Below, in pieces: positions 1 to 15,905 of a stretch of DNA of 32,000 bases. Made by a program: the position numbers and the translations under genes. Source of the DNA: an uncultured Erysipelotrichaceae bacterium. Its GTDB lineage: Bacteria > Bacillota_I > Bacilli_A > Erysipelotrichales > Erysipelotrichaceae. The DNA lies in the NCBI GenBank assembly GCA_942493105.1, contig OW818668.1, positions 240,001-272,000 of the forward strand, given 5' to 3'. The notes under the pieces were generated by a model that worked only from the letters and a program-made list of their open reading frames with translations, searched no databases and was not told where the DNA came from. The stretch's first letter is position 1; every line of letters starts with the position of its first letter.

Positions 1-727
1 GATTAGAAGATTTATGATAACATAAGACAGTCCCATCTTCATTCAGGTAAGTACCGCCGACAATATACCCTTCATGATCATAGTCAGGTTTGATTCGTTC
101 ATGCTTTATAGGAAAAGAGTAAAACTTTCTGTATACATTGATAATCTCAACCTTGGTTTCGTTGTAGGTTAGGGTATAGTAATTGAAATTACAGTCATTT
201 TCATTTATATTCTTAAATCTTGTTCTTATCTCATCTTTCAACTCCCCTCTCCAATCCTCTAGTACTCCATAACTGATCATCTTTCCTTCACTATCAAATT
301 TTGATAGTGAAAATTGAATGATTTTGTTCACATAGATATTTCCATGAAACACAAAAGACCATTCGACTTCGCCTTCTCGAAAGAAAAACTCTGTTACTTT
401 AATATCTTCTTTGCCCCATAAATGATGATGAGTCGTACGAATTAGAATGTTATTCGAATCAAAATCGTGAACAAATACATCATCAAGTATCTTAGGTACC
501 CTACTTAACTTTCTTCCCAAGTCAAGGTTAGTTACCTGTATTTTCATGAAAGGTACTTTTTGGTAGTATCCGCCAATTTCAGATTTACATCTAGAATACT
601 CTTTTTTGACTGTCCTCTTGTCAAATTCAGCATAAAGTTCATTTATGTCCCTTGTTAAGGCATCAAAATTCTTTGAATTGGCGATTATATCAAGCATATG
701 TCTTAATTCATCATTATATTCGTTCAT
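1..727 (-). CDS. hypothetical cassette protein, C-terminal part lies beyond window start
   Basis: Hand translation of the minus strand from ATG at 727 (GGGGG RBS 5 nt upstream) stays open to position 2, at least 242 codons (MNEYNDELRHMLDIIANSK...). It is absent from the ORF track because it has no stop inside the window. No domain recognised. Confidence 0.6.
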   Translation of the reverse strand, partial: MNEYNDELRHMLDIIANSKNFDALTRDINELYAEFDKRTVKKEYSRCKSEIGGYYQKVPFMKIQVTNLDLGRKLSRVPKILDDVFVHDFDSNNILIRTTHHHLWGKEDIKVTEFFFREGEVEWSFVFHGNIYVNKIIQFSLSKFDSEGKMISYGVLEDWRGELKDEIRTRFKNINENDCNFNYYTLTYNETKVEIINVYRKFYSFPIKHERIKPDYDHEGYIVGGTYLNEDGTVLCYHKSSN

Positions 728-807
728 CTTGACCCCCATTAAGTTATGTTACTTAAGATAGTTTGTCCTTTACAAAGCACCTATAATGCAGCTTGACTCT
801 TGATTTC

Positions 808-836
808 ATTATCCCTTTTCTTCATCTATTAGTTTA
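808..836 (-). promoter_or_regulatory. conserved cassette promoter-like module (TAAACT-17-GATAAT)
   Basis: Minus strand reads TAAACT, a 17-nt spacer, then GATAAT. It belongs to the recurring ~40-nt module CTAA..GATGAATAAAAGGGATAATG and lies between repeat ICR1 and the ORF starting at 727. Confidence 0.45.
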
Positions 837-855
837 CTTCAATTCATCTAATCCC

Positions 856-970
856 AGAACTCACCACGGTCTTCGTATTCGCTCCATATGGAGCATTCCC
901 CACAATCTAGTATGAACGCTTAGGCACACCCAATCGTGTCCCACAGTGAGTTTGCCAAGACCGTGGTCTG
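856..970. repeat. ~115-nt inter-cassette repeat, copy 1 (ICR1)
   Basis: AGAAC flank. Terminal inverted repeat ACCACGGTCTT (863-873) / AAGACCGTGGT (957-967). Internal palindrome GCTCCATATGGAGC. Same orientation as the other six copies. Confidence 0.9.
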
Positions 971-998
971 CATCGCAATCTAAAACCAGTATTTCTGT

Positions 999-1628
999 TT
1001 ACTTGTACTGATTTGATTTTTCCTCATATTCTGTTGCTTTAACCAGATCCCCTAAACGTTTATAAAACAAGGATTCGAATTTGTAGCCAAATCGTTTAAT
1101 ATCATCATAATCATATTCTGTGATGATTTTCTCAATCATCTCTATACTCCAGGTCAAAACTTCAGTGGTTGCATCGCTATCTTGTTGGATCAAAGTAAAA
1201 GGAGCTAGTATACTTAAATAATCTGAAGAGGCTATGAGTAATTTATATCGCATCTCAAATGCTTCCTTAAATTCGGAAATTTGATCTAATTGATAAAGTG
1301 CAAAAAGGTATTCAATATAGAAAATCTCATAGTCTTGTTCTGTCATGTTAGTTGGTTTGTTTTCTATTGCTAAATAATAGTATTTTGCTTTTTCTTTATA
1401 TTGACCTTCAACCTTAAGCAGAGATTTTATGAGGTTTACCAAACTGTTATCAGAATGGTAAAAATCATATTCTCGTTCATACCATATAACCGCTTCGCTA
1501 TAATTACTCCTAGATACATAAAAGTCTCCAATTTGTCTTGAAAAAACATTTAAACTGAGACCTAGAACTATCGTTAATCCAATAGCAGAGGCAAATATAA
1601 TCAACAGAACTTTTATTGGCTTTTTCAT
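999..1628 (-). CDS. N-terminally membrane-anchored helical protein, paralog of 7356..8018
   Basis: 209-aa ORF with RBS GGAAAGGGGA. One N-terminal TM helix (VLLIIFASAIGLTIVLGLSL). The stretch RQIGDFYVSRSNYSEAVIWYEREYDFYHSDNSL aligns by eye with KRIGDSYYKAGKWGESLFWYQVNYEIFRSNESL of the 220-aa ORF. Confidence 0.7.
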   Translation of the reverse strand: MKKPIKVLLIIFASAIGLTIVLGLSLNVFSRQIGDFYVSRSNYSEAVIWYEREYDFYHSDNSLVNLIKSLLKVEGQYKEKAKYYYLAIENKPTNMTEQDYEIFYIEYLFALYQLDQISEFKEAFEMRYKLLIASSDYLSILAPFTLIQQDSDATTEVLTWSIEMIEKIITEYDYDDIKRFGYKFESLFYKRLGDLVKATEYEEKSNQYK

Positions 1629-1649
1629 TCTATCCCCTTTCCATTAGTT

Positions 1650-1764
1650 AGAGCGCACCACGGTCTTCGTATCCGCTCCAGGTGGAGCATTCTCCACACT
1701 CGAGTATGAATGCTTAGGCACAGCCAATCGTATCCCACGGTGAGTTTGCCAAGACCGTGGTCTG
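1650..1764. repeat. ~115-nt inter-cassette repeat, copy 2 (ICR2)
   Basis: ACCACGGTCTT 1657-1667, AAGACCGTGGT 1751-1761, GCTCCAGGTGGAGC. The left flank is diverged (GAGCG instead of AGAAC). Confidence 0.9.
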
Positions 1765-1826
1765 AGTGCTCAGGGGCTCATACTACTTTAACATTTCGAA
1801 TCTGCAAAAATCGACCTGTTCCACTA

Positions 1827-3755
1827 TTACTTGGTCACATTGTAATAATATTCGATGTCGCTTAGACCAATTGTCTGTGTAGTCCCATCTGAATATTCGA
1901 CAATGATTTCGCTAATTGTCGATGAGTCGTAAGAATAGCTGTAAAAAAGTGTAGTATTTCTTTTGTAAGAAGATGTTGCACCTGCAGCTAATGGTCCTGT
2001 GTATTTCAATCTAGTATAGTTTTTCCCGTCTATATAATCGTAAACTAAATCACCTACAGAATTGAAGTTATACCATTGAATAACAACATAATTGATTTTT
2101 TTAGAAGTATTATTCTTAATTCTGAAATTCCATTCTATACCACCAAACATGTCAGATGTATAATGCCAATTAAGTAGTGTTACAGGGGATAGTTGCTTAA
2201 CAAAAAACTCGCATGTAGCCACTTTTCCATTTGATGATGTTGCTGTTATTGTTGCAATACCATATGTATGAGCGGTAACAATTCCGTTTGAAACAGATAT
2301 TACATTACTATTTGAGCTCGTCCATACAACAGATTTAACAGTTGTGTTTGATGGCAATACTGTTGCTTTTAGTAGCAAACTATTGCCCACTTTTAAGTCA
2401 TAAGTAATATAATTCAAAGAAATTGAATCTGCTAACACTTCAGTAACAGTGACTGTTATGTTAGCCTTTACCCCATTGACAGCAGTGGCAGAGACCGTAA
2501 CTGTCCCGGTTTTTACTGCTGTGATTTTTCCATTTTCAACTGAAGCAACTGATGGGTCCGAAGAAGTCCAAGTTAGTAAATTATCTTTAGCTTCAACAGG
2601 CAGGATTGATACAGTTAGAATAGCAGTTTTGAGTCTCTCCAGAGATAATGTTTCAATGCCTAACGTAATTGATGCTACCTCATAATATGTAGAAACAACT
2701 ACACTCGAACTTACCCCATTTTTGGTGGTAGCAGTAATCGTAGTTGATCCTTTTGACATAGCCGACATTACTCCATTTTGATCGACAGAGATAACTGACG
2801 GATTTGACGATTCCCAGACTACCTTTTTTTCCGTAGCATTCAAAGGGAAATAATCTGCTGTTAAAGAGCCTGTTTTGCCAACGATTACGGATGTTGGCCC
2901 CTGCAAAGTTACGGAGCTTACATCAACATACCTAATATGAACGACTATTGAATCCATAATATTTTTACTACCAAGGACTTTTATGGTTACGTCGCCTTCT
3001 GACAATCCTATGATGACACCATCTTTAATTGTAGCTATTGACTCGTCTGAGGATTCCCAAGCAAGTTTTTTTATATCATAATCTATCGGATCAGTAATCA
3101 CAGTTATTGTTGCTGTATCGCCAATCGCTACTGTAACTACTGCATTTTGGATTTCTACATTAGTTATTGGATCACTTGGTGGAAACATTCCTATAAGTAA
3201 CATAAACACTATAGGAGTGATAATTGGGACCAACTTCAACAATTTAGTTTTTGATGGGTCTTCTCCAAATTTCTTCTTTAATGGTATATAAACTAATGGA
3301 GTTAGTGAAATCCCTAAGAAGATAAAAATCAACCCAGATATCTGATTTATAGAAATTAATCCACTCAGAATGAATATGACACCAAAGAAATATCGTGCTA
3401 CTGAACTAATCTTCTTGCGGGATTTAGGCTCACTTCTTGGCTTTTGGGCATTAATAGGTTTTGCTGAAAAGTTTGTTTTCGCCTGTTGAGTTTGCTTTAT
3501 TGGTTTACTAAAGTCACTTTGAAATAGTGGTCTATCGCTTTCCCTTTGAGACGCTTTGAATAAATGTTGCCCATCTTCAATGGGTACCGTATTCGTATTT
3601 TCAATAGTCGAATCTACAATTTCAGGATCCTTTTTTTGTGTTTCAGGCGCAACAAAGGATTTTTGAATTTCGTTCTTTATAGCGCTTCCACATGAACTGC
3701 AAAACTTCTCACTACCTGTTAGTGGTCTTCCACATGTCGAACAGAACTTTGCCAT
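1827..3755 (-). CDS. zinc-ribbon / transmembrane / 4x Big_2 (bacterial Ig-like) repeat surface protein
   Basis: 642-aa ORF with RBS AAGGGGGGG. N-terminal CxxC..CxxC motif (FCSTCGRPLTGSEKFCSSCG). Hydrophobic segments around aa 120-190. Four repeats carrying W(E/T)SS(D/N)xS(V/I) Big_2-like signatures, plus a distinct C-terminal beta-rich domain. Confidence 0.8.
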   Translation of the reverse strand: MAKFCSTCGRPLTGSEKFCSSCGSAIKNEIQKSFVAPETQKKDPEIVDSTIENTNTVPIEDGQHLFKASQRESDRPLFQSDFSKPIKQTQQAKTNFSAKPINAQKPRSEPKSRKKISSVARYFFGVIFILSGLISINQISGLIFIFLGISLTPLVYIPLKKKFGEDPSKTKLLKLVPIITPIVFMLLIGMFPPSDPITNVEIQNAVVTVAIGDTATITVITDPIDYDIKKLAWESSDESIATIKDGVIIGLSEGDVTIKVLGSKNIMDSIVVHIRYVDVSSVTLQGPTSVIVGKTGSLTADYFPLNATEKKVVWESSNPSVISVDQNGVMSAMSKGSTTITATTKNGVSSSVVVSTYYEVASITLGIETLSLERLKTAILTVSILPVEAKDNLLTWTSSDPSVASVENGKITAVKTGTVTVSATAVNGVKANITVTVTEVLADSISLNYITYDLKVGNSLLLKATVLPSNTTVKSVVWTSSNSNVISVSNGIVTAHTYGIATITATSSNGKVATCEFFVKQLSPVTLLNWHYTSDMFGGIEWNFRIKNNTSKKINYVVIQWYNFNSVGDLVYDYIDGKNYTRLKYTGPLAAGATSSYKRNTTLFYSYSYDSSTISEIIVEYSDGTTQTIGLSDIEYYYNVTK

Positions 3756-3764
3756 AACCCCCCC

Positions 3765-4235
3765 TTAATACTCTAGGTATTTTGCATAATATTTGAATAA
3801 AAAACTATTTGTCTTAACTGTCACAGTTTTTTTTCTTCCATTACTATAAATCAACAAAAACGTCGATTCTTTCTTATTCTTACCGCTTATAGCTCCTCCT
3901 AGTAGACCAACTGGACCTAATAATGCTCCACCTATAGCTCCACGAACTATTGAACTTGTAGCTGATTTTCTTGAATCGTTCCCAACAATTATTGTCTTAA
4001 CAATATATGGTCGAGTTGCTTTTTTAACAGTAGGATTAATTGTTCTGGTCTGAAAGTTTGATTTCTGTTCTTCAAAAAACGCATTTATCTTTTGATCATC
4101 ACTAAACTCATCATCAATATCCTCATCAGTAACCCTCTCTGATTCGTACTCGGTCTGTATCTGAACTTTAAAACCACATTTAGAACAAAATTTTGCATCA
4201 TCACTCATTTTAGAGCCACAGTTTGTGCAGAACAT
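3765..4235 (-). CDS. small zinc-ribbon protein with glycine-zipper segment
   Basis: Start moved to ATG 4235 (RBS GAAAGGA, 8 nt spacing), giving MFCTNCGSKMSDDAKFCSKCG. GAIGGALLGPVGLLGGAISG glycine-zipper. Stop lies 9 nt before the next gene, so it is probably co-transcribed with 1827..3755. Confidence 0.7.
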   Translation of the reverse strand: MFCTNCGSKMSDDAKFCSKCGFKVQIQTEYESERVTDEDIDDEFSDDQKINAFFEEQKSNFQTRTINPTVKKATRPYIVKTIIVGNDSRKSATSSIVRGAIGGALLGPVGLLGGAISGKNKKESTFLLIYSNGRKKTVTVKTNSFLFKYYAKYLEY

Positions 4236-4417
4236 ATTGATCATCCTTTCTAAGTTCAAAAAAGTGGAACGATAATTTAACATCCATTTTCATTAATCTG
4301 AAATATATCTAGTAGATATCGCATTTAATGATTCTAATTCTCTAAAGTAGATACTTATGAATGTTCTTGCTCAAAATTGTTCTAAACCTGAATTAATGCT
4401 TCAAACCCATTATTGCT

Positions 4418-4446
4418 ATTATCTCTTTTATTTATCTGTTAGTCTA
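4418..4446 (-). promoter_or_regulatory. conserved cassette promoter-like module (TAGACT-17-GATAAT)
   Basis: Minus strand reads TAGACT aacagataaataaaaga GATAAT, upstream of the zinc-ribbon gene pair. Confidence 0.45.
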
Positions 4447-4636
4447 CCTATTATGCGTCTGATTTGTTGACAAATCAATACAGTTAGTTTCTCCCCTCTG
4501 TCAATCCGGGACACTTAGTGATGTGTATTGCATAAGGGAGTATTAGCTTAAGGGCAAGAAGGCGTATTCGTGTCTGTGCCTAATTTAATCAATACATGAT
4601 ATTGAGTTATGAAGTCGTAAATTCCGTCTCATCTGT

Positions 4637-5173
4637 TTACTGGATAAATGCCTGTATAAAGAAAATTTTCGATATTACACAGTAGTAAACGTACTCATCA
4701 ATGCTAAACGTTCCATCATCATTTATAGTTGCACTGAAATTAGGATAATAGCTATTTTCGGAGCTAAAAGACAACTGAACCTTCTTACCAACTTGAGATG
4801 ATTCAGTTTTTCCGGTAATAATGAAATGCACTTTATAAGGAGCAGCTCCTGGATCATCATATAGGTACCCATCAGTTGAACGATTTTTATCTTGATTTAC
4901 TGACTCAAATGACACATTTTTAATCTCAGTTGTTATCGATTTGATATGAATAACGATGTCTGTCCCTGTTACAATCCAGTCAAAAGATTTTGATGGGTAA
5001 AGATCTAGCGAAGACCCATCTGGGTAATTTTTAATTAAACTCGCAATTTTCTCAGACACTTTGATATCAACTAAATCATTGATCTCTTGTTCAGTAAGAG
5101 TTTTTGTCCCTCCATCACCACTGCACCCAGAAACTAACAGCAAAAATACTAACACTGTAATTATCTTTTTCAT
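4637..5173 (-). CDS. lipoprotein of unknown function
   Basis: Start moved to ATG 5173 (RBS AAAGGGGA). Signal peptide with lipobox MKKIITVLVFLLLVSGC. Confidence 0.75.
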   Translation of the reverse strand: MKKIITVLVFLLLVSGCSGDGGTKTLTEQEINDLVDIKVSEKIASLIKNYPDGSSLDLYPSKSFDWIVTGTDIVIHIKSITTEIKNVSFESVNQDKNRSTDGYLYDDPGAAPYKVHFIITGKTESSQVGKKVQLSFSSENSYYPNFSATINDDGTFSIDEYVYYCVISKIFFIQAFIQ

Positions 5174-5310
5174 AAATCCCCTTTGACTGAAATTATACAA
5201 TATTTATTCTTTCAAATTCGTCCTAGTTTTTACTAGTCCGCTTTTATGGTCATCATATAAAGATGCCTTTCCCCTAAATTGTTCCAAAACAGAATTATCT
5301 CTTCAATCTT

Positions 5311-5348
5311 ATTATCCCCATTTTCCCTTATATTCATCCGATAGTCTA
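5311..5348 (-). promoter_or_regulatory. conserved cassette promoter-like module with 9-nt insertion (TAGACT-17-GAAAAT, then GATAAT)
   Basis: Minus strand reads TAGACT atcggatgaatataagg GAAAAT ggg GATAAT, upstream of the lipoprotein gene. Confidence 0.4.
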
Positions 5349-5401
5349 CCTACTATACGTGTATTTTTGGTTCATATTTGAAGTGGCATAGTCCAGTTCT
5401 C

Positions 5402-5517
5402 ATAACGCACCACGGTCTTCGTATTCGCTCCAGGTGGAGCATTCTCACTCTTCTAGTATAAACCGCTTAGGCACACCCAATCGTGTCCCACGGTCGGCTA
5501 TTTAAGACCGTGGTCAG
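5402..5517. repeat. ~115-nt inter-cassette repeat, copy 3 (ICR3), platform-type right end
   Basis: ACCACGGTCTT 5409-5419, AAGACCGTGGT 5504-5514. The 9 nt between CCCACGGT and AAGACCGTGGT read CGGCTATTT instead of GAGTTTGCC, and the right flank is CAGCGTTGTC, as in ICR7. Confidence 0.9.
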
Positions 5518-5669
5518 CGTTGTCTTTTCTCAGTCAAACTGCTCTTGTTATTCAACTTTCATAATCATTCTGTCTCATTCATTCTACCCTATTTTAGAGC
5601 TATATATATCACTAATTTAGTGTTCATTTTCTTATTATTTCGGTTCTCTTTTAAAAAGAAATCTCAAAA
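5518..5669. repeat. ~152-nt conserved platform spacer between ICR3 and att repeat DR1
   Basis: Aligns by eye with 10879-11030 at about 15 mismatches in 152 nt. Non-coding. Contains CTAAAATAGGGTAGAATG (minus strand), which resembles the cassette promoter module. Confidence 0.8.
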
Positions 5670-5760
5670 TCCGTTACACTTTTGTTACACTTGGACAAAG
5701 TGACCTGCAAAAAAGCCTTATAGAATAAGGCTTCGTGAAGTCATGGTGCCATCACCGAGA
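5670..5760. repeat. 91-nt direct repeat DR1: tRNA-Thr 3' fragment plus downstream sequence (att-like)
   Basis: Identical by eye to 11031-11121 and 16807-16897. Ends with TGGTGCCATCACCGAGA, the complement of the last 17 nt of tRNA-Thr. Contains a terminator hairpin copy and GTTACACTTTTGTTACAC (5673-5690). Confidence 0.9.
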
Positions 5761-5972
5761 GCAGAATTTATGCGTATTTTTAGGTGTCAGTTATGATAAA
5801 AAACTTAAAAAACAAGCCTTTTAGTCGATTTTTATCGAATTAAGTTGGATTAAATCGGAATAAAACAGAAAATCCGTTACACATTTGTTACACTTCGGAA
5901 AGACTATTTCAGCCACCATGTTAATCAACAAAAGACTTCACTTTTCTCAACACACCTGAATTTACTCAACAT
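5761..5972. other. non-coding arm region adjacent to DR1, diverged homolog of 11122-11368
   Basis: Shared blocks with 11122-11368: TATTTAGGT, TTATGATAAAAA, a tandem GTTAC repeat, and TTTTCTCAAC. No ORF. Confidence 0.6.
5876..5893. repeat. tandem GTTACAC direct repeat (candidate arm-type recombinase site)
   Basis: GTTACACATTTGTTACAC with 11-nt periodicity. The ~35-nt context AAAATCCGTTACACnTTTGTTACACTT duplicates the left end of DR1, 203 nt away. Confidence 0.55.
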
Positions 5973-6494
5973 TCACTTCTTACTGTTTTTCCATCGTTCT
6001 TCTTCATACCAAGCTTTTCCGGAATATTCGTCCCACTTCGCGATGAATGTCCTATATGATATGTTAAGATTGTAAATTCCAACATGACCATCAAGACAGA
6101 TACTGATTCTATATCTTCCATCATTTGTTTCGGGCAATGCTGATAAATCTTGGATACGACACCAGGATTTCATGGTTTCTTCAAGAATAGTCGCAAATTC
6201 AGAAGGATCTACGTTTCTTGCTGGTTCAGATTTTATTAAGTTCCAGTTTTCGTCAAACTGCGAGTTGGCACAGAATATGATTTCGTCAACTTGAACATCT
6301 TCAAACTCAATGATGCATCCCAGAATACGCATGTCTTCAGTTAATTTATTCTGAGAGTTTTCTGTAGTCGCATTGATATCATCTACGATCCAATGCATTG
6401 TATGTTCCTTAATGGAAAACGACGTGATTTCAGCATCATGGTATGAGAAGTGGCTTATTTCATTAATGGCTTTGTATTTCATGTGATTTATCAC
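5973..6494 (-). CDS. hypothetical cytoplasmic protein
   Basis: 173-aa ORF (GTG 6494 or ATG 6482; the start is uncertain because AGGGAG sits 1 or 13 nt upstream). Acidic, no TM segment, no domain recognised. Confidence 0.6.
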   Translation of the reverse strand: MINHMKYKAINEISHFSYHDAEITSFSIKEHTMHWIVDDINATTENSQNKLTEDMRILGCIIEFEDVQVDEIIFCANSQFDENWNLIKSEPARNVDPSEFATILEETMKSWCRIQDLSALPETNDGRYRISICLDGHVGIYNLNISYRTFIAKWDEYSGKAWYEEERWKNSKK

Positions 6495-6565
6495 ACTCCC
6501 TGTTTGTTCATTCCAATTAAACGAATAGCTTCATGATTAACTATATGCCTAGTTATTATGTTTCT

Positions 6566-6680
6566 AGAACACACCACGGTCTTCGTATTCGCTCCAGGTG
6601 GAGTATTCCCCACAGTCTAGTATGAACGCTTAGGCACATGCAGTCGTGTCCTACGGTGAGTTTGCTAAGACCGTGGTCTG
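6566..6680. repeat. ~115-nt inter-cassette repeat, copy 4 (ICR4)
   Basis: AGAAC 6566-6570, ACCACGGTCTT 6573-6583, AAGACCGTGGT 6667-6677. The most diverged interior of the seven (CACATGCAGTCGTGTCCTACGG). Confidence 0.9.
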
Positions 6681-6732
6681 ATTCAATATTACCGAATACC
6701 AAACATTCCACTATCATAACTGCAGTCATCTA

Positions 6733-7212
6733 TTAATTTACCTTTTCAATAATGGCACCGATCTTACTATGTGGATAATAAATAACTTTAAATCGATCGC
6801 CAATCCTTATTGGATAATAATAAGCCGTAAAACTAAACTCTTCATCTGAAACAACACTTTTTATCACTACTCCTCTTATCTCTATGACATCTTCAGGTCC
6901 AGCACTACTTGGGCTTATTACTACACATTCATCCAAAACATATTCCTTTCTGACAACATTGGGTATATCTGCTAAAACATTAGAGGAAGACAAAACATTA
7001 ACTAGTATTATTATCAAAAAGAAAGAGTAAAGCACAATATGAACTATGGAGTTCATTTTCTCATAGTTAACATTACTCGTAAAGACATTTTGAATTTTGG
7101 TTCTGCTTAAAAATACAATTGCAATAACACATACAATTGGGATAATAAGCACGCCTTGAAGTGAAGCAAAGTATAACTGCGACATTTTGGATAATTGATC
7201 TGAATAATTCAT
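6733..7212 (-). CDS. small two-TM membrane protein
   Basis: 159-aa ORF. Hydrophobic helices GVLIIPIVCVIAIVFL and IVHIVLYSFFLIIILVNVL. Confidence 0.65.
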   Translation of the reverse strand: MNYSDQLSKMSQLYFASLQGVLIIPIVCVIAIVFLSRTKIQNVFTSNVNYEKMNSIVHIVLYSFFLIIILVNVLSSSNVLADIPNVVRKEYVLDECVVISPSSAGPEDVIEIRGVVIKSVVSDEEFSFTAYYYPIRIGDRFKVIYYPHSKIGAIIEKVN

Positions 7213-7274
7213 AATTGTGCCATTACCCCTAACTTGCTACAAATCAGAACTAACTCTTTATTCTTATTAATCTC

Positions 7275-7303
7275 ATTATCCCTTTTATTCATCCGTTAGT
7301 CTA
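7275..7303 (-). promoter_or_regulatory. conserved cassette promoter-like module (TAGACT-17-GATAAT)
   Basis: Minus strand reads TAGACT aacggatgaataaaagg GATAAT, about 60 nt upstream of ATG 7212. Confidence 0.45.
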
Positions 7304-7355
7304 CCTACTATAAGGATATTTAAGGCTCTACTATAAATCGCTGTGGTCCAATCAC

Positions 7356-8018
7356 TCAATTAATTCCATCCTGTAACTCTTGCTTAACTTGCTCATATTG
7401 TTCAATTAGTTTGTCATGCATCTCTGTGTTTCCAAGTTTCTGGTAAATAAGTGATTGGCTATAATAAATAGGTAATTTGAAGATGTTCTTTTGGTTATTT
7501 ACCTCTAGGATATAATCACCTATTTCTATCGCAAACAACAGAGTGTCATTGCTGGCTGAATTATCAAGAGAAATATAGCTTAGAGGTTGAGTGGTATCAA
7601 TGTTTCCAACAAAATCATTAATGCTTTCACGATATACTGTCCTGAATTCTTCTGTATCACCGTTGTCATATAAGGCTTCAATATACTGGATTGTCAAACC
7701 CAAAAGATCATCTTCTTGGAGGATATTTTTTTCTAGCAAAATTGGTGTATATTCGATGGTGATTTTTGTGTTGTTTACTAATAAAGCAGTGAAACACAAT
7801 TCTTTTAAGCTTTCATTACTTCTAAATATCTCGTAGTTTACTTGGTACCAGAAAAGTGATTCCCCCCACTTACCAGCTTTATAATATGAATCACCTATTC
7901 GTTTCGAAATTGAGATAGTACCCGCAACTATTAAACCAATCAATAAAATAAAACTCAATGCTAATTTCTTAAATACTGCAGAGCGTTTTTTTCTTTGGTT
8001 AAATGTCGATTGCGTCAT
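7356..8018 (-). CDS. N-terminally membrane-anchored helical protein, paralog of 999..1628
   Basis: 220-aa ORF with RBS GAGGGGTAGG. One TM helix (LALSFILLIGLIVAGTISI). Similar to the 209-aa ORF along its length. Confidence 0.7.
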   Translation of the reverse strand: MTQSTFNQRKKRSAVFKKLALSFILLIGLIVAGTISISKRIGDSYYKAGKWGESLFWYQVNYEIFRSNESLKELCFTALLVNNTKITIEYTPILLEKNILQEDDLLGLTIQYIEALYDNGDTEEFRTVYRESINDFVGNIDTTQPLSYISLDNSASNDTLLFAIEIGDYILEVNNQKNIFKLPIYYSQSLIYQKLGNTEMHDKLIEQYEQVKQELQDGIN

Positions 8019-8162
8019 ATTACCTACCCCTCAGTGAATTGACCGTCTTTCCTCTAAACTGTATGCATACTCGACTATCCCCCAATGATGCTATTTAAAT
8101 TCATTACTATAAGTATCTGCAATCCACTATCAATCAAGATCAAATAAACTTATGTATGGAAA

Positions 8163-8723
8163 TCAACTTAATATGTTGGTGAAGTAAGTACCTATAGCAG
8201 ATTCGATAGGCATTACGTGAACTAGATTACTTTCGCTATTAACTGGTTTAGGTTTAAATTCAGAGTTCGGTTCACTCATTGATAATGAATAGACTGATAA
8301 TGAATAAAATGCTTGTACTGTCAGATCATCCGGACTCTTTTTGTATGCCTTTTCGATCATTTCATGACCCAGTATAATCAACTCGTCAGGTGAAGTGAAG
8401 TCTTTATTTAGGAGATAATATGGCATTACATACATCATATATCCAAAATAGGTATTGAAATAAATGTTATCCGGAAATTTTTCATTTCCATAGGTATAAA
8501 CTGATTGGAACTTCGATTGAAGCTCATTAAAATCCAAATGTTTAGCATTCTTTAAATGTCCTATACTGTAATTCAATATATACCAAAGTTCCAGTGCATA
8601 GCATAGGTAGTTGTTTAGGTTTCTAGGCTCACTTTTCCATGCCGTATGTAAAAAATCGAGAGCCTTTTCCCACTCATTTTGTGCCTCTAGTTCGACGACC
8701 TTTGGATTATAGATTACTGTCAT
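8163..8723 (-). CDS. hypothetical cytoplasmic helical protein
   Basis: Start moved to ATG 8723 (RBS GGGGGA, 9 nt spacing), giving MTVIYNPKVVELEAQNEWEKALDFLH.... The track's 24-codon N-terminal extension would run into the promoter module. Confidence 0.65.
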   Translation of the reverse strand: MTVIYNPKVVELEAQNEWEKALDFLHTAWKSEPRNLNNYLCYALELWYILNYSIGHLKNAKHLDFNELQSKFQSVYTYGNEKFPDNIYFNTYFGYMMYVMPYYLLNKDFTSPDELIILGHEMIEKAYKKSPDDLTVQAFYSLSVYSLSMSEPNSEFKPKPVNSESNLVHVMPIESAIGTYFTNILS

Positions 8724-8793
8724 ATTTCTTATTCCCCCTAAGTTTACTGAACATATTTCGATGTGACTAAGATATTTTATAATCTCTATTCCC

Positions 8794-8822
8794 ATTATCC
8801 CTTTTATTCATCCTTTAGTCTG
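8794..8822 (-). promoter_or_regulatory. conserved cassette promoter-like module (CAGACT-17-GATAAT)
   Basis: Minus strand reads CAGACT aaaggatgaataaaagg GATAAT, directly after ICR5. Confidence 0.45.
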
Positions 8823-8842
8823 CCTTCTATACATCTAATCCC

Positions 8843-8957
8843 AGAACACACCACGGTCTTCGTATTAGCTCCAGGTGGAGCATTCTCCTCATCCTAATAT
8901 GAACGCTTAGGCACACCCAATCGTGTCCCACGGTGAGTTTGCCAAGACCGTGGTCTG
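8843..8957. repeat. ~115-nt inter-cassette repeat, copy 5 (ICR5)
   Basis: AGAAC 8843-8847, ACCACGGTCTT 8850-8860, AAGACCGTGGT 8944-8954, GCTCCAGGTGGAGC. Confidence 0.9.
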
Positions 8958-9028
8958 TGTCAATGTACTCTACGAAAGAATACTGGACTCTCTAACAGAT
9001 CTACCGCAATATAATATTCCGTTTGCTA

Positions 9029-9814
9029 TTAATTTGCTTTAAATGATTCTGCTAAATTCATTAGTATCGAAGAATCTATGTGAGGTGCAACCTGCAAAAG
9101 CATCTTTCCAAGACTGTCTAACCGAAGTTGAACAATACTGTGCTGTGATTCTATCCCACCTTGACTTGTTTTTAATACTTTGAAAATGCAGCCGTTTCCA
9201 AAAGCCACTTCGTCTATGACCTCTTCAACAACCAATTCTCCAGTTAAAGGGTGGTTGATTATTTTCTTTGAATTTCTAATATCAAATTCGAATTCGACAA
9301 GTTGGACCTCATTACCGCTTGTATAACATCTGATGATTTTAGAGTAACCGGTATCATCAAACTCAATTATCCAATCAATTGGTACCATATATGAACCGAA
9401 ATCATCACTGACTGTCTTGAATGAGTGCTCCAAAAAATAACTTTCTGTATCATCATATTTGAAACGAAATTGGAGTAATATTTCCGGCCTATCTAGTATT
9501 GCGTCAGTGCTTCGAAGTTCGTTGAGCATCATTTTGTTTATCTCATATTTATCTGCTATTTCCAGGGGAGGACTGTACGTCCGATTTGACCAAGAAAAAG
9601 GTATTCGCGGATCTATTATATTTATACCAACTGATTCCAATTCTCCAGCTTCAATTCTCAATGTGAAAACAGACATTTGTTTTAGTAACAAAAATACAAT
9701 ATCTTGTCCTATTTTAGCTGATGCATACACTTCAAATAACATTCCATCATAAGCAGAGTGCCAATTACCAAATTTCTTTTCAAATCTTTCTTTACTAATA
9801 ATCTGAAGGATCAT
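9029..9814 (-). CDS. hypothetical cytoplasmic protein
   Basis: Start moved from GTG 9823 to ATG 9814 (RBS AGGGTGGA, 6 nt spacing). 261 aa, no domain recognised. Confidence 0.65.
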   Translation of the reverse strand: MILQIISKERFEKKFGNWHSAYDGMLFEVYASAKIGQDIVFLLLKQMSVFTLRIEAGELESVGINIIDPRIPFSWSNRTYSPPLEIADKYEINKMMLNELRSTDAILDRPEILLQFRFKYDDTESYFLEHSFKTVSDDFGSYMVPIDWIIEFDDTGYSKIIRCYTSGNEVQLVEFEFDIRNSKKIINHPLTGELVVEEVIDEVAFGNGCIFKVLKTSQGGIESQHSIVQLRLDSLGKMLLQVAPHIDSSILMNLAESFKAN

Positions 9815-9849
9815 TATATCCACCCTAACACTAACATCTTGTTAAAACC

Positions 9850-9878
9850 ATTATACCTTATCGTATCACTCATATTTA
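9850..9878 (-). promoter_or_regulatory. diverged copy of cassette promoter-like module (TAAATA-17-TATAAT)
   Basis: Minus strand reads GTCTAAATATGAGTGATACGATAAGGTATAATG. The -10 is consensus, the -35 is weak, and the CTAA...AAGGnATAATG skeleton of the module is shared. Confidence 0.35.
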
Positions 9879-9924
9879 GACAAAAGATCCATAAAGAAAT
9901 AGAAACAATTTTAAGTTCATTCCT

Positions 9925-10039
9925 AGAACTCACCACGGTCTTCGTATGCGCTCCAGGTGGAGCATTCTCCTCATTCTAGTATTAACGCTTAGGCACACCC
10001 AATCATGTCCCACGGTGAGACTGCCAAGACCGTGGTCTA
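9925..10039. repeat. ~115-nt inter-cassette repeat, copy 6 (ICR6)
   Basis: AGAAC 9925-9929, ACCACGGTCTT 9932-9942, AAGACCGTGGT 10026-10036. Confidence 0.9.
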
Positions 10040-10123
10040 AGTCAATATTATGATCTCTACTGTTACTACTTATGCTTATGGACTTTGGATTTCTCAACTC
10101 ATCACTACTCTCTCAAACAAATT

Positions 10124-10675
10124 TCACTCAACTTTTAACCATTCGATGATGAATTGATAAGCTTCAAAATCATCTTGTTTCCAGGGTGTACACGAGTACA
10201 AGATTTTAGTATCATTCAATATTGTCTTTCGCATAGCAAGAACCTCGTATGAGTCACTTGTTGCATTTACCAAAGATTTCGCCACCATAATGAAATGCGT
10301 ATATTGTATTCTAACCAATCCATTTTGTGAACATAAGTCGAATTCAATTATCGGTTTTTCTTGGGTCAGTTCAACCTTAACTCCTTGGTACTTTTTCGGA
10401 TCTCCAACTTGGGTGATAGTTCCCTTACCTCTAACACATGAAAATCCTGTTTGAAAATCTTGACTTGATTTCTTACCAAAAAGCGATATCTTTACATGAT
10501 ATGTGATTCTTGGTTGGACACTCAGAATATCAAAAGACAACGCATTCTCACCGAAATCCGGGTTATAGGCTGGATTGGATTGTAGCCACCACTTTTCCTC
10601 GGGATTCAGTTTCTCGCCTTTTCTAATTCTAGTTAATAGTTCACTACAATAAGCAACATTTTGATGGTAGTTCAT
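10124..10675 (-). CDS. hypothetical cytoplasmic protein
   Basis: The track ORF starts at TTG 10735. ATG 10675 (MNYHQNVAYCSELL...) is preferred, with a weak GGGAAA RBS. No domain recognised. Confidence 0.6.
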   Translation of the reverse strand: MNYHQNVAYCSELLTRIRKGEKLNPEEKWWLQSNPAYNPDFGENALSFDILSVQPRITYHVKISLFGKKSSQDFQTGFSCVRGKGTITQVGDPKKYQGVKVELTQEKPIIEFDLCSQNGLVRIQYTHFIMVAKSLVNATSDSYEVLAMRKTILNDTKILYSCTPWKQDDFEAYQFIIEWLKVE

Positions 10676-10762
10676 TTTATTTTCCCATTTAGTTAATATA
10701 GAAATAATTGCTGTTATTTTAATTGTAGCATCCAAATAATGTGTTATGAAATCGTTTATTCT

Positions 10763-10878
10763 CAGAACTCACCATGGTCTTCGTAGTCGCTCCATGTGGA
10801 GCATTCCTGCTCATCTAGTATCAACATATTAGCCCATGTAATCGTGTCCCACGGTCGTCCGTTTAAGACCGTGGTCAG
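10763..10878. repeat. ~115-nt inter-cassette repeat, copy 7 (ICR7), platform-type right end
   Basis: ACCATGGTCTT 10770-10780 (one C>T), AAGACCGTGGT 10865-10875. The inter-motif 9 nt read CGTCCGTTT and the right flank is CAGCGTTGTC, as in ICR3. Confidence 0.9.
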
Positions 10879-11030
10879 CGTTGTCTTTTCTCAGTCAAAC
10901 AACCTACATTATTCGACTTTCATCATCATTCTGTCTCATTCATTCTACCTTATTTTAGAGCTACAAACATCACTAATTTAGTGTTCATTTTCTCATTATT
11001 TCGGTTCTCTTTTAAAAAGAAATCTCAAAT
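10879..11030. repeat. ~152-nt conserved platform spacer between ICR7 and att repeat DR2
   Basis: Second copy of 5518-5669 (about 15 mismatches by eye). Non-coding. The 61-aa plus-strand track ORF here is rejected. Confidence 0.8.
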
Positions 11031-11121
11031 TCCGTTACACTTTTGTTACACTTGGACAAAGTGACCTGCAAAAAAGCCTTATAGAATAAGGCTTCGTGAA
11101 GTCATGGTGCCATCACCGAGA
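11031..11121. repeat. 91-nt direct repeat DR2: tRNA-Thr 3' fragment plus downstream sequence (att-like)
   Basis: Identical by eye to DR1 and DR3. tRNA 3' fragment at 11105-11121. GTTACACTTTTGTTACAC at 11034-11051. Confidence 0.9.
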
Positions 11122-11368
11122 AACAAGGTATTTAGGTTAATCGGTTCATTTTAAGATAATATATGCTTATTTATGATAAAAATGACGATTTTAGAGCTAT
11201 ATAAATAATTAGATATTGATTTCTATGAGAATTATGTTACGATTTTGTTACGATTTTTTACAGGTCTTTTTATGCATTGTATTAGACTCGTTAGATTCTA
11301 AATTGGTTATTTGCACTACAATGACATATTCCAAATGGACTTTGTTTTCTCAACTTACCCCAAGTACT
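11122..11368. other. non-coding arm region adjacent to DR2, diverged homolog of 5761-5972
   Basis: Shared sequence blocks in the same order as 5761-5972. No ORF. Confidence 0.55.
11236..11254. repeat. tandem GTTACGA direct repeat (variant arm-type site)
   Basis: GTTACGATTTTGTTACGAT. It has the same 11-nt periodicity and the same position relative to the tRNA fragment as 5876-5893. Confidence 0.5.
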
Positions 11369-11767
11369 TCATAGATGAGGTTTAATGATATTGCTAAAAT
11401 ATTCCTTTTTGCCTGAAAGAAAATCTTCATATAAATTCTGTTTTTCATCAATAAATACTATACTATCTTGGAGCAGCTCAATTTTCTTCTGTAGATCCTC
11501 TTTTTGTTTTTGAAGCAATTGCTTTCGAAGCTGAATAGAAGGCTTACCTAATAAACACAGATCTACATATTGCTTCATTTGTTCAATAGTCATTCCACAT
11601 CGTTTTAAGCATAACAAGCTTTTGATCCAGGCAACATCATGATCATCGAAGATTCTGTAGTCGTTTTGATCTCTTTTCACATTCGGAATTAATCCTTGAT
11701 TGCAGTAATACTTCAATGTTTGATAACTTAAGCCAACCTTTTGGCCAGTTTCTTTCATGGAATACAT
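11369..11767 (-). CDS. MerR-family transcriptional regulator
   Basis: 132 aa. N-terminal winged HTH (ETGQKVGLSYQTLKYYCNQGLIP), a coiled-coil dimerisation helix, and cysteines in the C-terminal half. Divergent from an AKR gene across a 19-bp-spacer promoter. Confidence 0.85.
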   Translation of the reverse strand: MYSMKETGQKVGLSYQTLKYYCNQGLIPNVKRDQNDYRIFDDHDVAWIKSLLCLKRCGMTIEQMKQYVDLCLLGKPSIQLRKQLLQKQKEDLQKKIELLQDSIVFIDEKQNLYEDFLSGKKEYFSNIIKPHL

Positions 11768-11786
11768 CTTTTTTCTCCAATGGGTG

Positions 11787-11817
11787 TTGACCGATAGTAA
11801 CTATCGGCATCTATAAT
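11787..11817 (+). promoter_or_regulatory. MerR-type promoter/operator (TTGACC-19 bp-TATAAT)
   Basis: -35 at 11787-11792, -10 at 11812-11817, 19-bp spacer. The spacer contains the perfect palindrome CCGATAG-TAA-CTATCGG (11791-11807). Confidence 0.75.
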
Positions 11818-11856
11818 GGTATTATACATCAAATGTAACATTTGAAAAGGAGAGAG

Positions 11857-12711
11857 ATGGAATATACAACATTAAGAAATGGACTAGAAATACCGATGTT
11901 GGGATTTGGAGTCTTTCAGATGTCCAATGAGGAAACTGAGAAGTGTGTTCTTGAAGCCATTGAAGCGGGTTATCGATTGATTGATACCGCTCAGAGTTAT
12001 CGCAACGAAGATGGGGTTGGTAACGCCATCTTGAAATGCGGACTGTCTAGGGAAGAACTCATTATCTCAACGAAAGTTTGGTATGATAACTATGGATACG
12101 AGAAAACCAAAGCATCTTTGATTGAATCTTTGAAGAAACTGAAAACAGATTATATTGATATTGTTTTACTTCATCAGCCATTCAATGATACCTATGGTGC
12201 TTATCGTGCTTTGGAAGAATTCTACAAAGAAGGGAAAATCAAAGCGATTGGGGTCAGTAATTTCTATCCTGATCGTTTAAGTGATATTTGTGCCTTTACT
12301 GAGATTGCCCCGCTCATCAATCAAGTTGAAGTCAATGTTTTTAATCAACAAATTTCAGCTCAAGCAAACATGATTAAGAATGGTGTACAAATACAAGCAT
12401 GGGCACCTTTTGGAGAAGGCCGCAATAATATGTTCACAAATCCCACGCTTAAGGAAATTGGTGAAAGACATCATAAGTCGATTGCTCAAATTATCTTAAG
12501 ATGGTTACTTCAAAGAAAGGTCATTTCATTAGCTAAGACGGTCAATAAGGAAAGAATGATCGAAAATCTGAATATCTTTGATTTCGATCTTTCTGTTGAA
12601 GATATGGTGCTTATAGAGAGCTTGGATACCAAAGAGAGCTTGTTCTTTAATCATCAAAGTGTTGAAGCGGTTGAACGATTTGTTGAATTGGCTAAAAAAA
12701 GACGTGATTAA
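11857..12711 (+). CDS. aldo/keto reductase (DkgA/YtbE-like, ~284 aa)
   Basis: Start moved to ATG 11857 after AAAGGAGAGAG. AKR hallmarks include LIDTAQSYRNE, ISTKVW, DIVLLHQP and VSNF. Confidence 0.9.
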   Translation: MEYTTLRNGLEIPMLGFGVFQMSNEETEKCVLEAIEAGYRLIDTAQSYRNEDGVGNAILKCGLSREELIISTKVWYDNYGYEKTKASLIESLKKLKTDYIDIVLLHQPFNDTYGAYRALEEFYKEGKIKAIGVSNFYPDRLSDICAFTEIAPLINQVEVNVFNQQISAQANMIKNGVQIQAWAPFGEGRNNMFTNPTLKEIGERHHKSIAQIILRWLLQRKVISLAKTVNKERMIENLNIFDFDLSVEDMVLIESLDTKESLFFNHQSVEAVERFVELAKKRRD

Positions 12712-12735
12712 CATAAATCGTATTTAATACTTAAC

Positions 12736-12759
12736 AAGAAGCCTTGAAAAGGGCTTCTT
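12736..12759 (+). terminator. hairpin after AKR gene
   Basis: AAGAAGCC-ttgaaaag-GGCTTCTT followed by ATTTAT. The T-tract is weak. Confidence 0.5.
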
Positions 12760-12802
12760 ATTTATAATCCAATAATCATGAATTGAAATTTCTCATATAA
12801 AA

Positions 12803-12825
12803 AAAGGCTTTATAAACAAGCCTTT
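12803..12825 (-). terminator. Rho-independent terminator of 12879..13874
   Basis: AAAGGCTT-tataaac-AAGCCTTT. On the minus strand it is followed by a run of T. Confidence 0.65.
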
Positions 12826-12878
12826 GTAGAAACAACAGTAGATAAGCATATGTCCTTATATTCGACGCTTCCACATTC

Positions 12879-13874
12879 TTAATCAACAGGATTAGGCAAA
12901 GCTCCTACTATACTGTGTGAAGTATAAGGTTCTTCCAAGTATTTGATTTCTTCTTGAGTAAGTTTGATATTCATAGCAGCAACGGCTTCATCCACGTGTG
13001 ATATTTTGGTAGCCCCAATGATGGGTGCTACAACCGGTTTTTTGTTCCATAGCCAAGCCAATGCAATCTGTGATCTTAACACTTGATGTTTTGTTGCGAG
13101 TTCTCCCACTCGATCAAGGATTTCACGATCCATTTCTTCGGCTTTGTCATATTTTGATTTAGCGATTTGATCTGTATCACTTCGAAGACTTTTTTCACCA
13201 GGATTGCGTGATAAACGACCTGAAGCCAAAGGACTGTAAGGAGTCGAAGCTACACCCGTATCAATACAATATGGATTCATTTCTCGCTCTTCTTCACGAT
13301 AAATCAAATTATAGTGATTTTGCATCGATATGAATTTAGTCCAACCATGTTTTTCGGCTACGTTTTGTGCCTTTTGAAATTGCCAAGCATACATAGCACT
13401 GGCTCCAATATATCTTACCTTTCCGCTTTTGATCAAATCATGCAAAGCCTCCATTGTTTCTTCGATTGGGGTATTATAATCCCAACGGTGAATGATGTAT
13501 AAATCGATGTAATCTACGCCTAATCGTTTTAAACTTTGTTCACATTCGTAAAAGATTTCTTTTCTTGATAAGCCGCCCCCATTTGGAACCTTTCTCATCG
13601 TCTGATTTACTTTTGTAGCAATAACAATTTCTTCACGTTTAGCGAAATCTTTAAGTGCTCTGCCTAAATAGAGTTCGCTTTCGCCCAAAGAATAGACATT
13701 GGCTGTATCAAAAAAGTTGATACCTAAATCTAAAGCGTGTTTGATGACTTGACGACTTTCTTCTTCATTAATGACCCATAAGTGAGATCTCTTGGCAGGA
13801 TCACCAAAACCCATGCAGCCTAAAGCAATCTTTGATACTTCTAATCCGGAATTTCCTAATCGTGTATATTCCAT
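12879..13874 (-). CDS. aldo/keto reductase (Tas/YajO-like, 331 aa)
   Basis: MEYTRLGNSGLEVSKIALGCMGFG, FFDTANVYS, DLYIIHRWD. Full-length AKR fold pattern. Confidence 0.9.
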   Translation of the reverse strand: MEYTRLGNSGLEVSKIALGCMGFGDPAKRSHLWVINEEESRQVIKHALDLGINFFDTANVYSLGESELYLGRALKDFAKREEIVIATKVNQTMRKVPNGGGLSRKEIFYECEQSLKRLGVDYIDLYIIHRWDYNTPIEETMEALHDLIKSGKVRYIGASAMYAWQFQKAQNVAEKHGWTKFISMQNHYNLIYREEEREMNPYCIDTGVASTPYSPLASGRLSRNPGEKSLRSDTDQIAKSKYDKAEEMDREILDRVGELATKHQVLRSQIALAWLWNKKPVVAPIIGATKISHVDEAVAAMNIKLTQEEIKYLEEPYTSHSIVGALPNPVD

Positions 13875-13897
13875 AGGTTATCCTCTCTTTCACTTTA

Positions 13898-13928
13898 AGC
13901 ATAAACCTTGGAGTTGACTCTAAGTCAA
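13898..13928 (-). promoter_or_regulatory. MerR-type promoter/operator (TTGACT-19 bp-TATGCT) for 12879..13874
   Basis: On the minus strand, -35 is at 13928-13923 and -10 at 13903-13898, with a 19-bp spacer. The spacer carries the operator CTTGGAGT-tg-ACTCTAAG (13907-13924). Confidence 0.7.
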
Positions 13929-13955
13929 GCAATAATCATTTATTTTCATAAAGAC

Positions 13956-13986
13956 TTGACTTGGAGTTAACTCTAAGTGTTATTGT
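13956..13986 (+). promoter_or_regulatory. MerR-type promoter/operator (TTGACT-19 bp-TATTGT) for flavodoxin-merR operon
   Basis: -35 at 13956-13961, -10 at 13981-13986, 19-bp spacer. Same operator arms, CTTGGAGT-ta-ACTCTAAG. Confidence 0.7.
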
Positions 13987-14089
13987 TGTAATGGAAATGT
14001 ATATTGAGGTTTCTTGAGATCCAACATATAGAACCTATATTAATAAGTATTGTATTAACACATTCCTCGATCATTCAAAGGAGAAAGCA

Positions 14090-14617: not shown

Positions 14618-14642
14618 TTTTCAAACCTCAAGGAGCATGCTT

Positions 14643-15044: not shown

Positions 15045-15175
15045 TCTTTTATACACTTTCGTTTATATCGGTTATTATGTATCGAGTTTTAAGACAAAGA
15101 CGGCTTTTGATTCAAAGAATCAAATTCCCCAATTAATACTCGACACGCCAGGAACACAGTACATACAGATAATAA

Positions 15176-15196
15176 AAAGGCTTAAAACAAGCCTTT
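15176..15196 (-). terminator. Rho-independent terminator of 15246..15806
   Basis: AAAGGCTT-aaaac-AAGCCTTT. The minus strand continues TTTTTATT. Confidence 0.6.
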
Positions 15197-15245
15197 AGTT
15201 GATTCTTTAGAATCTAATCTGACTAAATCAAAGTTAAACAGGAAA

Positions 15246-15806: not shown

Positions 15807-15905
15807 ATTTTATTCCTTCTTTCTTTGATGCTTGTGTTTTTATGTGCATCTGCTATAATTATATCAGTACTATTACATATGTATAGTATGCACTTTTTTG
15901 TTATA

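Follow-up and report, generated by a model that had tools for sequence, protein, structure and literature searches.

The window analysed here is a 32,000-nt stretch from an uncultured Erysipelotrichaceae bacterium (assembly GCA_942493105.1, contig OW818668.1, positions 240,001 to 272,000). Its first 11.3 kb consist of small minus-strand genes with copies of a repeat of about 116 nt, which we label ICR, in between. Seven copies (ICR1 to ICR7) lie in the window, all in a single orientation. Two of them, ICR3 and ICR7, adjoin modules derived from the 3′ end of a gene for tRNA-Thr(GGT). The question addressed here is how these two copies are related to the rest of the family and, in particular, how ICR3 arose. 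Loci outside the window are cited by L number and single repeat copies by locus and position.

Five of the seven copies (ICR1, ICR2, ICR4, ICR5 and ICR6), referred to here as canonical, are 87–97% identical to the consensus of 22 canonical copies from several genomes. The ends of the repeat are 11-nt terminal inverted repeats, ACCACGGTCTT ... AAGACCGTGGT, with CCCACGGT internal. The motif CCACGGT occurs 18 times compared with 1.05 times expected, a number reached in 0 of 100 shuffles. Two inverted motifs, 12 nt apart as the first-pass annotation had reported, flank a 9-mer that reads GAGTTTGCC or a close variant in the five canonical copies. The repeat is an imperfect palindrome with a 10–11-bp terminal stem and inner hairpins, and its single strand can fold; the folding z-score is −4.3 to −4.9 on either strand for canonical copies and ICR3, and −2.8 for ICR7.

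The right-end pattern was scanned once each in the genome and metagenome collections and matched only assemblies of the Erysipelotrichaceae type and related metagenome contigs. A profile search run afterwards gave 36 copies in total, every one of them antisense to the neighbouring genes and within an array of small genes. No ICR was found in viral contigs or in phage or plasmid collections, in the window's 15 kb of housekeeping DNA or in approximately 60 kb of the relatives' flanks. Canonical copies are 84–95% identical between genomes with housekeeping flanks that are 78–88% identical in DNA; L018_4847, a degenerate internal copy, reaches 80% in this comparison. To the right of the ICRs, the 35–65 nt from the stop codon of the upstream gene to the repeat can be sorted into at least three conserved types (...CTTGGGCTCTC..CCACTGCAGTC; ...GTCAATGTACTC..GTGACT..CAAAAG; ...GCTATCTTTAATAAGACATATAAAGC...), with examples at window positions 8958–9005, L018 6214–6250, L016 9463–9500 and L005 2028–2075. 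Because copies beside different genes have flank types in common, the repeated unit would be longer than 116 nt.

ICR3 and ICR7 depart from the family at their right ends, much as the first-pass annotation had described. Their 9-mers (CGGCTATTT at 5495–5503 and CGTCCGTTT at 10856–10864) differ from those of the other five copies, they have exactly the right flank CAGCGTTGTCTTTTCTCAGTCAAAC in common, and both run into the same spacer and then into a tRNA-derived repeat. Together these form a 282-nt duplicate (5479–5760 on the ICR3 side, 10840–11121 on the ICR7 side) that is 94% identical and ends in a copy of the tRNA-Thr(GGT) 3′ end, yet different genes follow the two copies. The flank CTGnnTCAAT, given for the other five copies, is present in ICR4 to ICR6 but not beyond those. 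Both platform-side copies had been described as hybrids that match the rest of the family up to CCCACGGT and then switch. This description suits ICR3, in which 80 of 88 positions agree with the canonical consensus to the left of the 9-mer (within the canonical range), followed by 2 of 9 in the 9-mer and 12 of 12 in the third motif. As aligned, ICR3 is a true chimera; the two lineages meet where the variable middle part gives way to the 9-mer, at or in the second CCACGGT.

The description fails for ICR7, for which the alignment shows divergence from the canonical consensus over most of its length and no sharp switch. Agreement is 67 of 87 positions, with the divergence concentrated in the middle (20 of 36), and the copy keeps the motif blocks (with one change in motif 1, CCATGGT) and the GCTCC/GGAGC hairpin stems. 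Its middle is closest to the platform-proximal repeat of L034 (score 12, the best of all copies; next 7, median about 2). The platform would therefore carry a whole repeat rather than a half-site, and ICR7 is, on this comparison, not a hybrid but an old, divergent copy of the platform lineage. L034 aligns with the window's platforms from the tRNA through the repeat, including the terminator, a box motif (see below) and a region between box and repeat that aligns with the spacer, and the DNA after it differs; the platform thus does occur in another genome with different downstream DNA. The L034 repeat has a CG-type 9-mer, CGTTCATTT, and all three of its motifs are degenerate. In other array loci BLAST found no homologue of the spacer, L034 being the only exception. 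By the first-pass annotation, a platform-type right end without the spacer beside it would count against its inference. The internal copy L018_4847 goes part of the way: its 9-mer is of CG type (CGAAAATAT) and has no spacer beside it, but its flank is of the ordinary inter-cassette type.

The modules beyond the spacer indicate what the platform may be. Three copies of the tRNA 3′ end with terminator and box occur in the window (16803–16897, 11028–11121 and 5667–5760). At the first, the box AAGTGTAACAAAAGTGTAACGG and the terminator follow the intact tRNA-Thr(GGT) gene (16881–16954); the other two contain 17-nt tRNA fragments (11105–11121 and 5744–5760), and the copy next to ICR3 does not differ from the sequence that follows the real tRNA. 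Paired GTGTAAC-N4-GTGTAAC boxes lie approximately 200 nt apart around each tRNA core, and the spacer copy beside ICR7 contains a promoter-like match, GAGACA-18-AATAAT, at 10937–10908. The platform had been proposed as an equivalent of attI; the tRNA-derived repeat and spacer look instead like an arm of an integrase attachment site. We regard the platform as the putative core and P′ arm of an attP-like junction and the boxes as candidate arm-type sites that an integrase would bind. Repeated tRNA 3′ ends and attP-like internal junctions together argue for repeated integrase-mediated insertion at the tRNA, and window positions 1–16900 would be a stack of small islets at the tRNA-Thr(GGT) 3′ end. 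These islets appear to be integrase-less, as no integrase was found among the window's open reading frames (ORFs) in islets 1, B or A.

The boxes are read as arm-type sites because, in four phage contigs, box pairs immediately follow tyrosine integrase genes. A box search of viral contigs returned 26 loci; in two of these contigs (L042 and L054), two boxes 158–160 nt apart directly follow a gene with a Phage_integrase domain. The phage contigs L067 and L068, found through homologues of that integrase, have the same layout with a spacing of 168 nt. The work thus connects the GTGTAAC-N4-GTGTAAC box pair with a clade of phage tyrosine integrases. The motif also clusters beside primase/helicase genes in other viral contigs. 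In six of them (L039, L041, L044, L053, L061 and L064), GTGTAAC clusters lie between a gene of approximately 175 aa and a gene of approximately 1250 aa for a DUF5906 (D5-like helicase) protein, with a gene for a single-stranded DNA-binding protein next, and may represent use of the motif as a replication origin or operator. The box also fits the WalR consensus, TGTWAH-N5-TGTWAH; given the phage integrase contexts, a WalR-type operator was ranked below an arm-type site. The 7-mers of a box covary (GTGTAAC/GTGTAAC, TCGTAAC/TCGTAAC and TGCTAAC/TGCTAAC), which suggests variants in protein specificity. Covarying sites lie in the window (5667–5692, 5870–5891, 11028–11053, 11230–11251 and 16805–16830), in L034 and in L009 at about 6400. 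A similarity of the tRNA core to the CCACGGT motifs, visible by eye, is very short and was set aside.

We consider homologous exchange between repeat copies to be the most economical origin of ICR3 and give it about an even chance of being correct. Islets would have entered the 3′ end of tRNA-Thr(GGT) successively, probably through a phage-type tyrosine integrase supplied in trans. Each junction would be attP-like and consist of a P-arm box, 17 nt of tRNA, a terminator, a P′-arm box and a promoter-like module. In this islet lineage the P′ arm would end in a full-length 116-nt repeat of its own, belonging to the old, divergent platform lineage (ICR7 and the degenerate L034 copy). A single exchange, in which a platform copy recombined with a canonical repeat located further along the array, would account for ICR3. 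It would have been resolved within AATCGTGTCCCACGGT, where the two lineages show their longest uninterrupted identity, and would have removed or replaced the first gene or genes. Homologous recombination or gene conversion between direct repeat copies would be the simplest way to bring this about. The repeats, the tRNA-derived modules and a further intergenic module, D4, would then serve as portable homology that reshuffles immunity-type genes.

The ICR3 junction coincides with the right edge of AATCGTGTCCCACGGT, which at 16 nt is the longest stretch over which the two lineages agree, so homologous exchange would also place it there. The first-pass annotation had located a site-specific crossover between the second and third motifs. 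ICR3 does switch lineage at that point, but homologous exchange predicts the same point and the second supposed hybrid, ICR7, is not one. Within the left 94 nt of the repeat, 185 of 406 informative site pairs are incompatible by the four-gamete test, and the variation inside the ICR is linked to neither flank. An attempt to map crossovers by linkage in flank-sharing pairs was uninformative, given the mosaic state of the repeats. The breakpoints of truncated copies lie at positions 14/15 (twice), 32, 71, 79, about 92, about 107 and about 110. No recombinase domain was found in the window's cassette or flanking ORFs, a search that did not include DNA to the left of the window. None was found either in L024, L029 and L030 (precomputed Pfam) or in the other array loci examined; an IS110 copy in L024 is the sole transposase.

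Several points weigh against homologous exchange. Homology alone does not account for unrelated genes each acquiring a repeat, nor does it sit easily with a family in which all 36 copies are antisense to genes. ICR7 keeps its CCACGGT blocks, with one change in motif 1, while the rest of the copy drifts, which argues for a site recognized by a protein. Two independent left-truncated copies, L002_7479 and L008_2034, break alike, inside or just after the first CCACGGT and against non-homologous DNA. Another copy, L009_3458, is a fusion of motif 1 to motif 2: in this minimal site (L009 3440–3490), ACTCACCACGGT is joined straight to GAGTTTGCAAAGACCGTGGTCTGAGT and lacks the 83 nt that otherwise separate these motifs, either by deletion between direct CCACGGT repeats or because the site is an ancestral hairpin without an insert. 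All three fit motif-directed cutting as well as they fit microhomology. The trans-acting integrase assumed for the tRNA site is modelled on phage analogues and was not found in this genome, and a recombinase could lie to the left of the window, outside the DNA read.

These points bear on an alternative that we see as possible, if on balance unlikely: that the repeat is attC-like and the platform copy attI-like. An unlinked recombinase would bind the inverted CCACGGT half-sites, cross over between the second and third motif, and insert or excise cassettes downstream of the platform promoter. In ICR3 the change of lineage comes exactly after the second motif, and L008_2034 and L009_4407 share an unusual third motif, AAGATCGTAGT, together with the right-hand flank but differ over the rest of the repeat. 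The conservation of the platform in a second genome with different downstream DNA, the motifs kept in the divergent ICR7, and the 36 co-oriented copies with their 11-nt inverted-repeat ends and strong folding of either strand (weaker in ICR7, z = −2.8) are consistent with this reading, for which integrons and rAID-1 arrays (10.1101/471110) provide precedent. However, no recombinase adjoins any array or platform examined, no reciprocal hybrid was seen and, as ICR7 is not a hybrid, ICR3 is the one clean chimera. A CG-type 9-mer occurs internally without a platform (L018_4847), and the three platform 9-mers differ in their centres (GCTA, TCCG and TTCA), which is awkward for an overlap region that needs to match its partner. 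Truncation points are scattered rather than confined to one position, many cassette boundaries hold D4 only or nothing, and the L034 platform copy has all three motifs degenerate. Moreover, in relatives the platform arm joins different first genes right after the promoter module with no repeat present (L005 compared with L018). A broader form of the idea, which we hold to be unlikely, is gene capture in two tiers. An unlinked recombinase recognizing the CCACGGT triplet would insert single immunity-type cassettes behind the islet promoter, and borrowed phage integrases would move the islets into tRNA-Thr, making this an undescribed integron-like system of Erysipelotrichaceae.

Survival of the three CCACGGT blocks (motif 1 with one change) and of the GCTCC/GGAGC stems in the divergent ICR7 indicates that the ICR is under selection, and the repeat is most likely a protein-bound or structured element. 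It is improbable, in our judgement, that this suffices to explain ICR3 with no recombination at all. The repeat would then be a cis element that forms a hairpin, in RNA or DNA, between the genes of polycistronic transcripts. The 9-mer would be a free loop enclosed by the stems CCACGGT(C) and (G)ACCGTGG, and CG-type and GAG-type copies would be vertically diverged loop variants. The G+C content of the ICR (50–55%, compared with 35% for the array), its folding scores, its strict orientation relative to genes and the four CG-type loops, which all differ in sequence while the stems are kept, agree with such an element. In two genomes, the repeat lies 20 nt upstream of the start codon of a 209-aa gene and so must be transcribed there. 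Vertical descent of the platforms cannot, however, give a copy such as ICR3, in which the left part is canonical and the right part and flank are 94–100% identical to ICR7. The consensus fold energy is −29.5 kcal/mol and the covariation terms are 0.06 and 0.41 kcal/mol, which lends no covariation support to any fold; the few compensatory changes come mainly from CG-type copies. The repeat gave no match to Rfam even at E ≤ 10 (in the window only the tRNA passes the gathering score), and the ICR contains no conserved sigma-70-like pair or terminator-like U tract.

Four narrower proposals were also set aside. A promoter or terminator inside the ICR was dropped for lack of the conserved pair or U tract, and membership of a known RNA family was rejected on the Rfam result. 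Strand-specific folding of the attC kind was dropped, as the alignment fold favours the plus strand and single-copy folds slightly favour the gene strand. An invertible promoter, as in mpl of Mycoplasma penetrans, was rejected because 0 of 36 copies are inverted relative to their flanks. Finally, the 11-nt terminal inverted repeats, the length of about 116 nt and the high identity of copies across genomes (87–95%) would suit a miniature inverted-repeat transposable element (MITE) or repetitive extragenic palindrome (REP)-like element inserted repeatedly between genes, with ICR3 and ICR7 as copies that landed in the platform arm, but this is highly improbable for a repeat with 36 of 36 copies co-oriented and only inside tRNA-Thr arrays, no target-site duplication apparent in the flanks shown, no matches in phage or plasmid collections or viral contigs, and a platform copy that is syntenic in two genomes.

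Integrase-less elements flanked by att sites are known to accrete in tandem at tRNA genes, as in cis-mobilizable elements (CIMEs) and tycheposon-type islands with repeated partial tRNAs. As in those, 17-nt tRNA 3′ ends mark the borders here, internal attP-like junctions have both arms, and the islets carry only cargo and no integrase. Unlike those, the islets of the window are very small (2–6 kb), the P′ arm has a conserved promoter module and an internal repeat family, ICR, subdivides the cargo. Sedentary chromosomal integrons and clusters of attC sites lacking integron integrases (CALINs) hold arrays of attC sites such as the Vibrio cholerae repeats (VCRs). The array shares with them co-oriented, unrelated small genes, highly similar imperfect palindromic repeats of about 120 nt, a promoter-bearing head and mostly ORFan cargo. 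It differs in that no IntI was found beside the array head, in the window or in the array loci examined, and in that an alignment of 23 ICR copies shows no R″/L″–L′/R′ architecture and no visible GTTRRRY/RYYYAAC pair. Furthermore, the ICR is placed on the 5′ side of its gene instead of the 3′ side, many cassettes contain a promoter of their own and some boundaries have no repeat.

The closest described analogue is the recombinase-associated acquired interbacterial defence (rAID-1) array of Bacteroidales, in which a conserved XerD-family recombinase stands at the head as the defining feature and the repetitive intergenic sequences have been called 'reminiscent of integrons' (Ross et al., 10.1101/471110). 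In both kinds of locus, small orphan genes of immunity type form long arrays that have repetitive sequences between the genes (here ICR and D4) and bear signs of horizontal origin. Unlike rAID-1, the present arrays have no XerD-family recombinase at their head and start at tRNA-Thr, terminator, box and promoter module. They belong to another phylum (Erysipelotrichaceae) and lie inside tRNA-targeting islets, and the window's own cassettes have no matches to immunity families. The locus is a variant of these known kinds, combining tandem tRNA islets with an immunity-gene array that has integron-like repeats. Read conservatively, immunity-type and ORFan genes have been collected and reshuffled behind a tRNA gene through stacked integrase-less islets with portable promoter and repeat modules. 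Should the repeat prove to be a recombination site, the locus would represent integron-like gene capture in Gram-positive-type bacteria, nested in islets that depend on a foreign integrase, and the CCACGGT triplet with the platform arm would provide a sequence handle for an enzyme search.

Table 1. Repeats, tRNA-derived modules and islets in the window (positions in nt; attachment-site roles are putative)
Feature	Position	Strand	Remarks
ICR1	855–970	+	Canonical repeat
ICR2	1649–1764	+	Canonical repeat
ICR3	5402–5517	+	Chimeric repeat: canonical part 5402–5494; 9-mer 5495–5503; third motif 5504–5514; platform flank
ICR4	6565–6680	+	Canonical repeat
ICR5	8842–8957	+	Canonical repeat
ICR6	9924–10039	+	Canonical repeat
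ICR7	10763–10878	+	Full-length divergent repeat of the platform lineage; 9-mer 10856–10864
D4	7257–7312	−	Promoter-like module TAGACT-17-GATAAT with leader
Further D4 copies	790–845, 4400–4455, 5302–5357, 8776–8831		
Spacer	5518–5666; second copy 10879–11027	−	Distal P′ arm with diverged D4 promoter-like module; copies 94% identical
T3	5667–5760	−	Last 17 nt of tRNA-Thr(GGT), terminator and GTGTAAC-N4-GTGTAAC box (5667–5692); core and P′ arm
P-arm box GTGTAACAAATGTGTAAC	5859–5895	−	Box 5870–5891; 203 nt from P′-arm box
T2	11028–11121	−	Same module as T3; box 11028–11053
P-arm box of T2 junction	11230–11251		TCGTAAC variant
tRNA-Thr(GGT)	16803–16954	−	Intact gene (tRNA 16881–16954) with terminator and box; chromosomal attachment site, attL-type stack end
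Islet A	1–5666	−	Cut by window start; P′ arm, ICR3, genes
Islet B	5761–11027	−	P′ arm, ICR7, six small genes split by ICR6, ICR5, D4 module and ICR4, then P arm
Islet 1	11122–16802	−	Between T1 and T2; no ICR, no integrase

D4 is, from its distribution, a second kind of portable intergenic module. In relatives it lies directly after the box in the P′ arms. The arm formed by tRNA, box and D4 is 96% identical between L005 and L018, which diverge directly after D4 with no repeat there, and the difference between L005 and L010 is one gene bounded by D4 copies. Modules other than the ICR thus play the part of exchange points too, which speaks for homologous exchange and against a fixed crossover within the repeat.

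The arrays of L005, L018, L029, L030 and L034 begin at tRNA-Thr(GGT). A parallel design uses the last 17 nt of tRNA-Thr(CGT) in L002, L010, L016 and L009, with a conserved P arm of approximately 170 nt between box and tRNA fragment. In L016 the distal, attR-type end of the stack is visible as arm, tRNA fragment and half terminator followed by chromosomal genes; the last gene of islet B, together with ICR4, is also the terminal cassette of this array. In L024 one islet alone separates the tRNA from conserved chromosomal genes. There, an IS110-family element (10789–12623; 424-aa DEDD transposase at 11191–12465) splits a tRNA-derived module between terminator and box into halves at 10789–10839 and 12579–12623.

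By eye from the translations, the cargo of islet 1 includes two MerR regulators, two aldo-keto reductases, a flavodoxin-like protein and an HxlR-like regulator, among others. As this islet has no ICR and its cargo appears to be of a redox or detoxification type, the same att system would move other kinds of cargo as well. Islet A encodes a lipoprotein, two zinc-ribbon proteins (one with Big_2 domains), a TPR-like membrane protein and one more product. The window's cassettes are ORFan-like, most have no family match and none matches an immunity family. For the first gene after ICR7 (10124–10675, minus strand; 183 aa from the ATG), a set of 5.8 billion clustered proteins includes no relative other than its own entry. 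Cassettes of relatives encode DUF4279, DUF5071, DUF4304, DUF2691, DUF1871 and LRR proteins, and one islet type has an Rhs toxin. DUF4279 has been described as the immunity family FdL-Imm5 (PMC9424270). By analogy, the relatives' cargo resembles poly-immunity arrays.

Two genes in different islets of the window (999–1628 and 7356–8018, minus strand) encode membrane-anchored TPR-like paralogues (209 and 220 aa), neither of which has a family match, and the 209-aa cassette recurs in L002 at 94.5% DNA identity beside other neighbours. In L029 (11151–16961) and L030 (6028–11838), the first islet after tRNA-Thr(GGT) encodes a 1936-aa Rhs/YD-shell toxin (CBM96, RHS_repeat and TEN_YD-shell) with a 180-aa gene downstream; it is bordered by the same tRNA-derived junction, and small genes separated by ICR and D4 come next.

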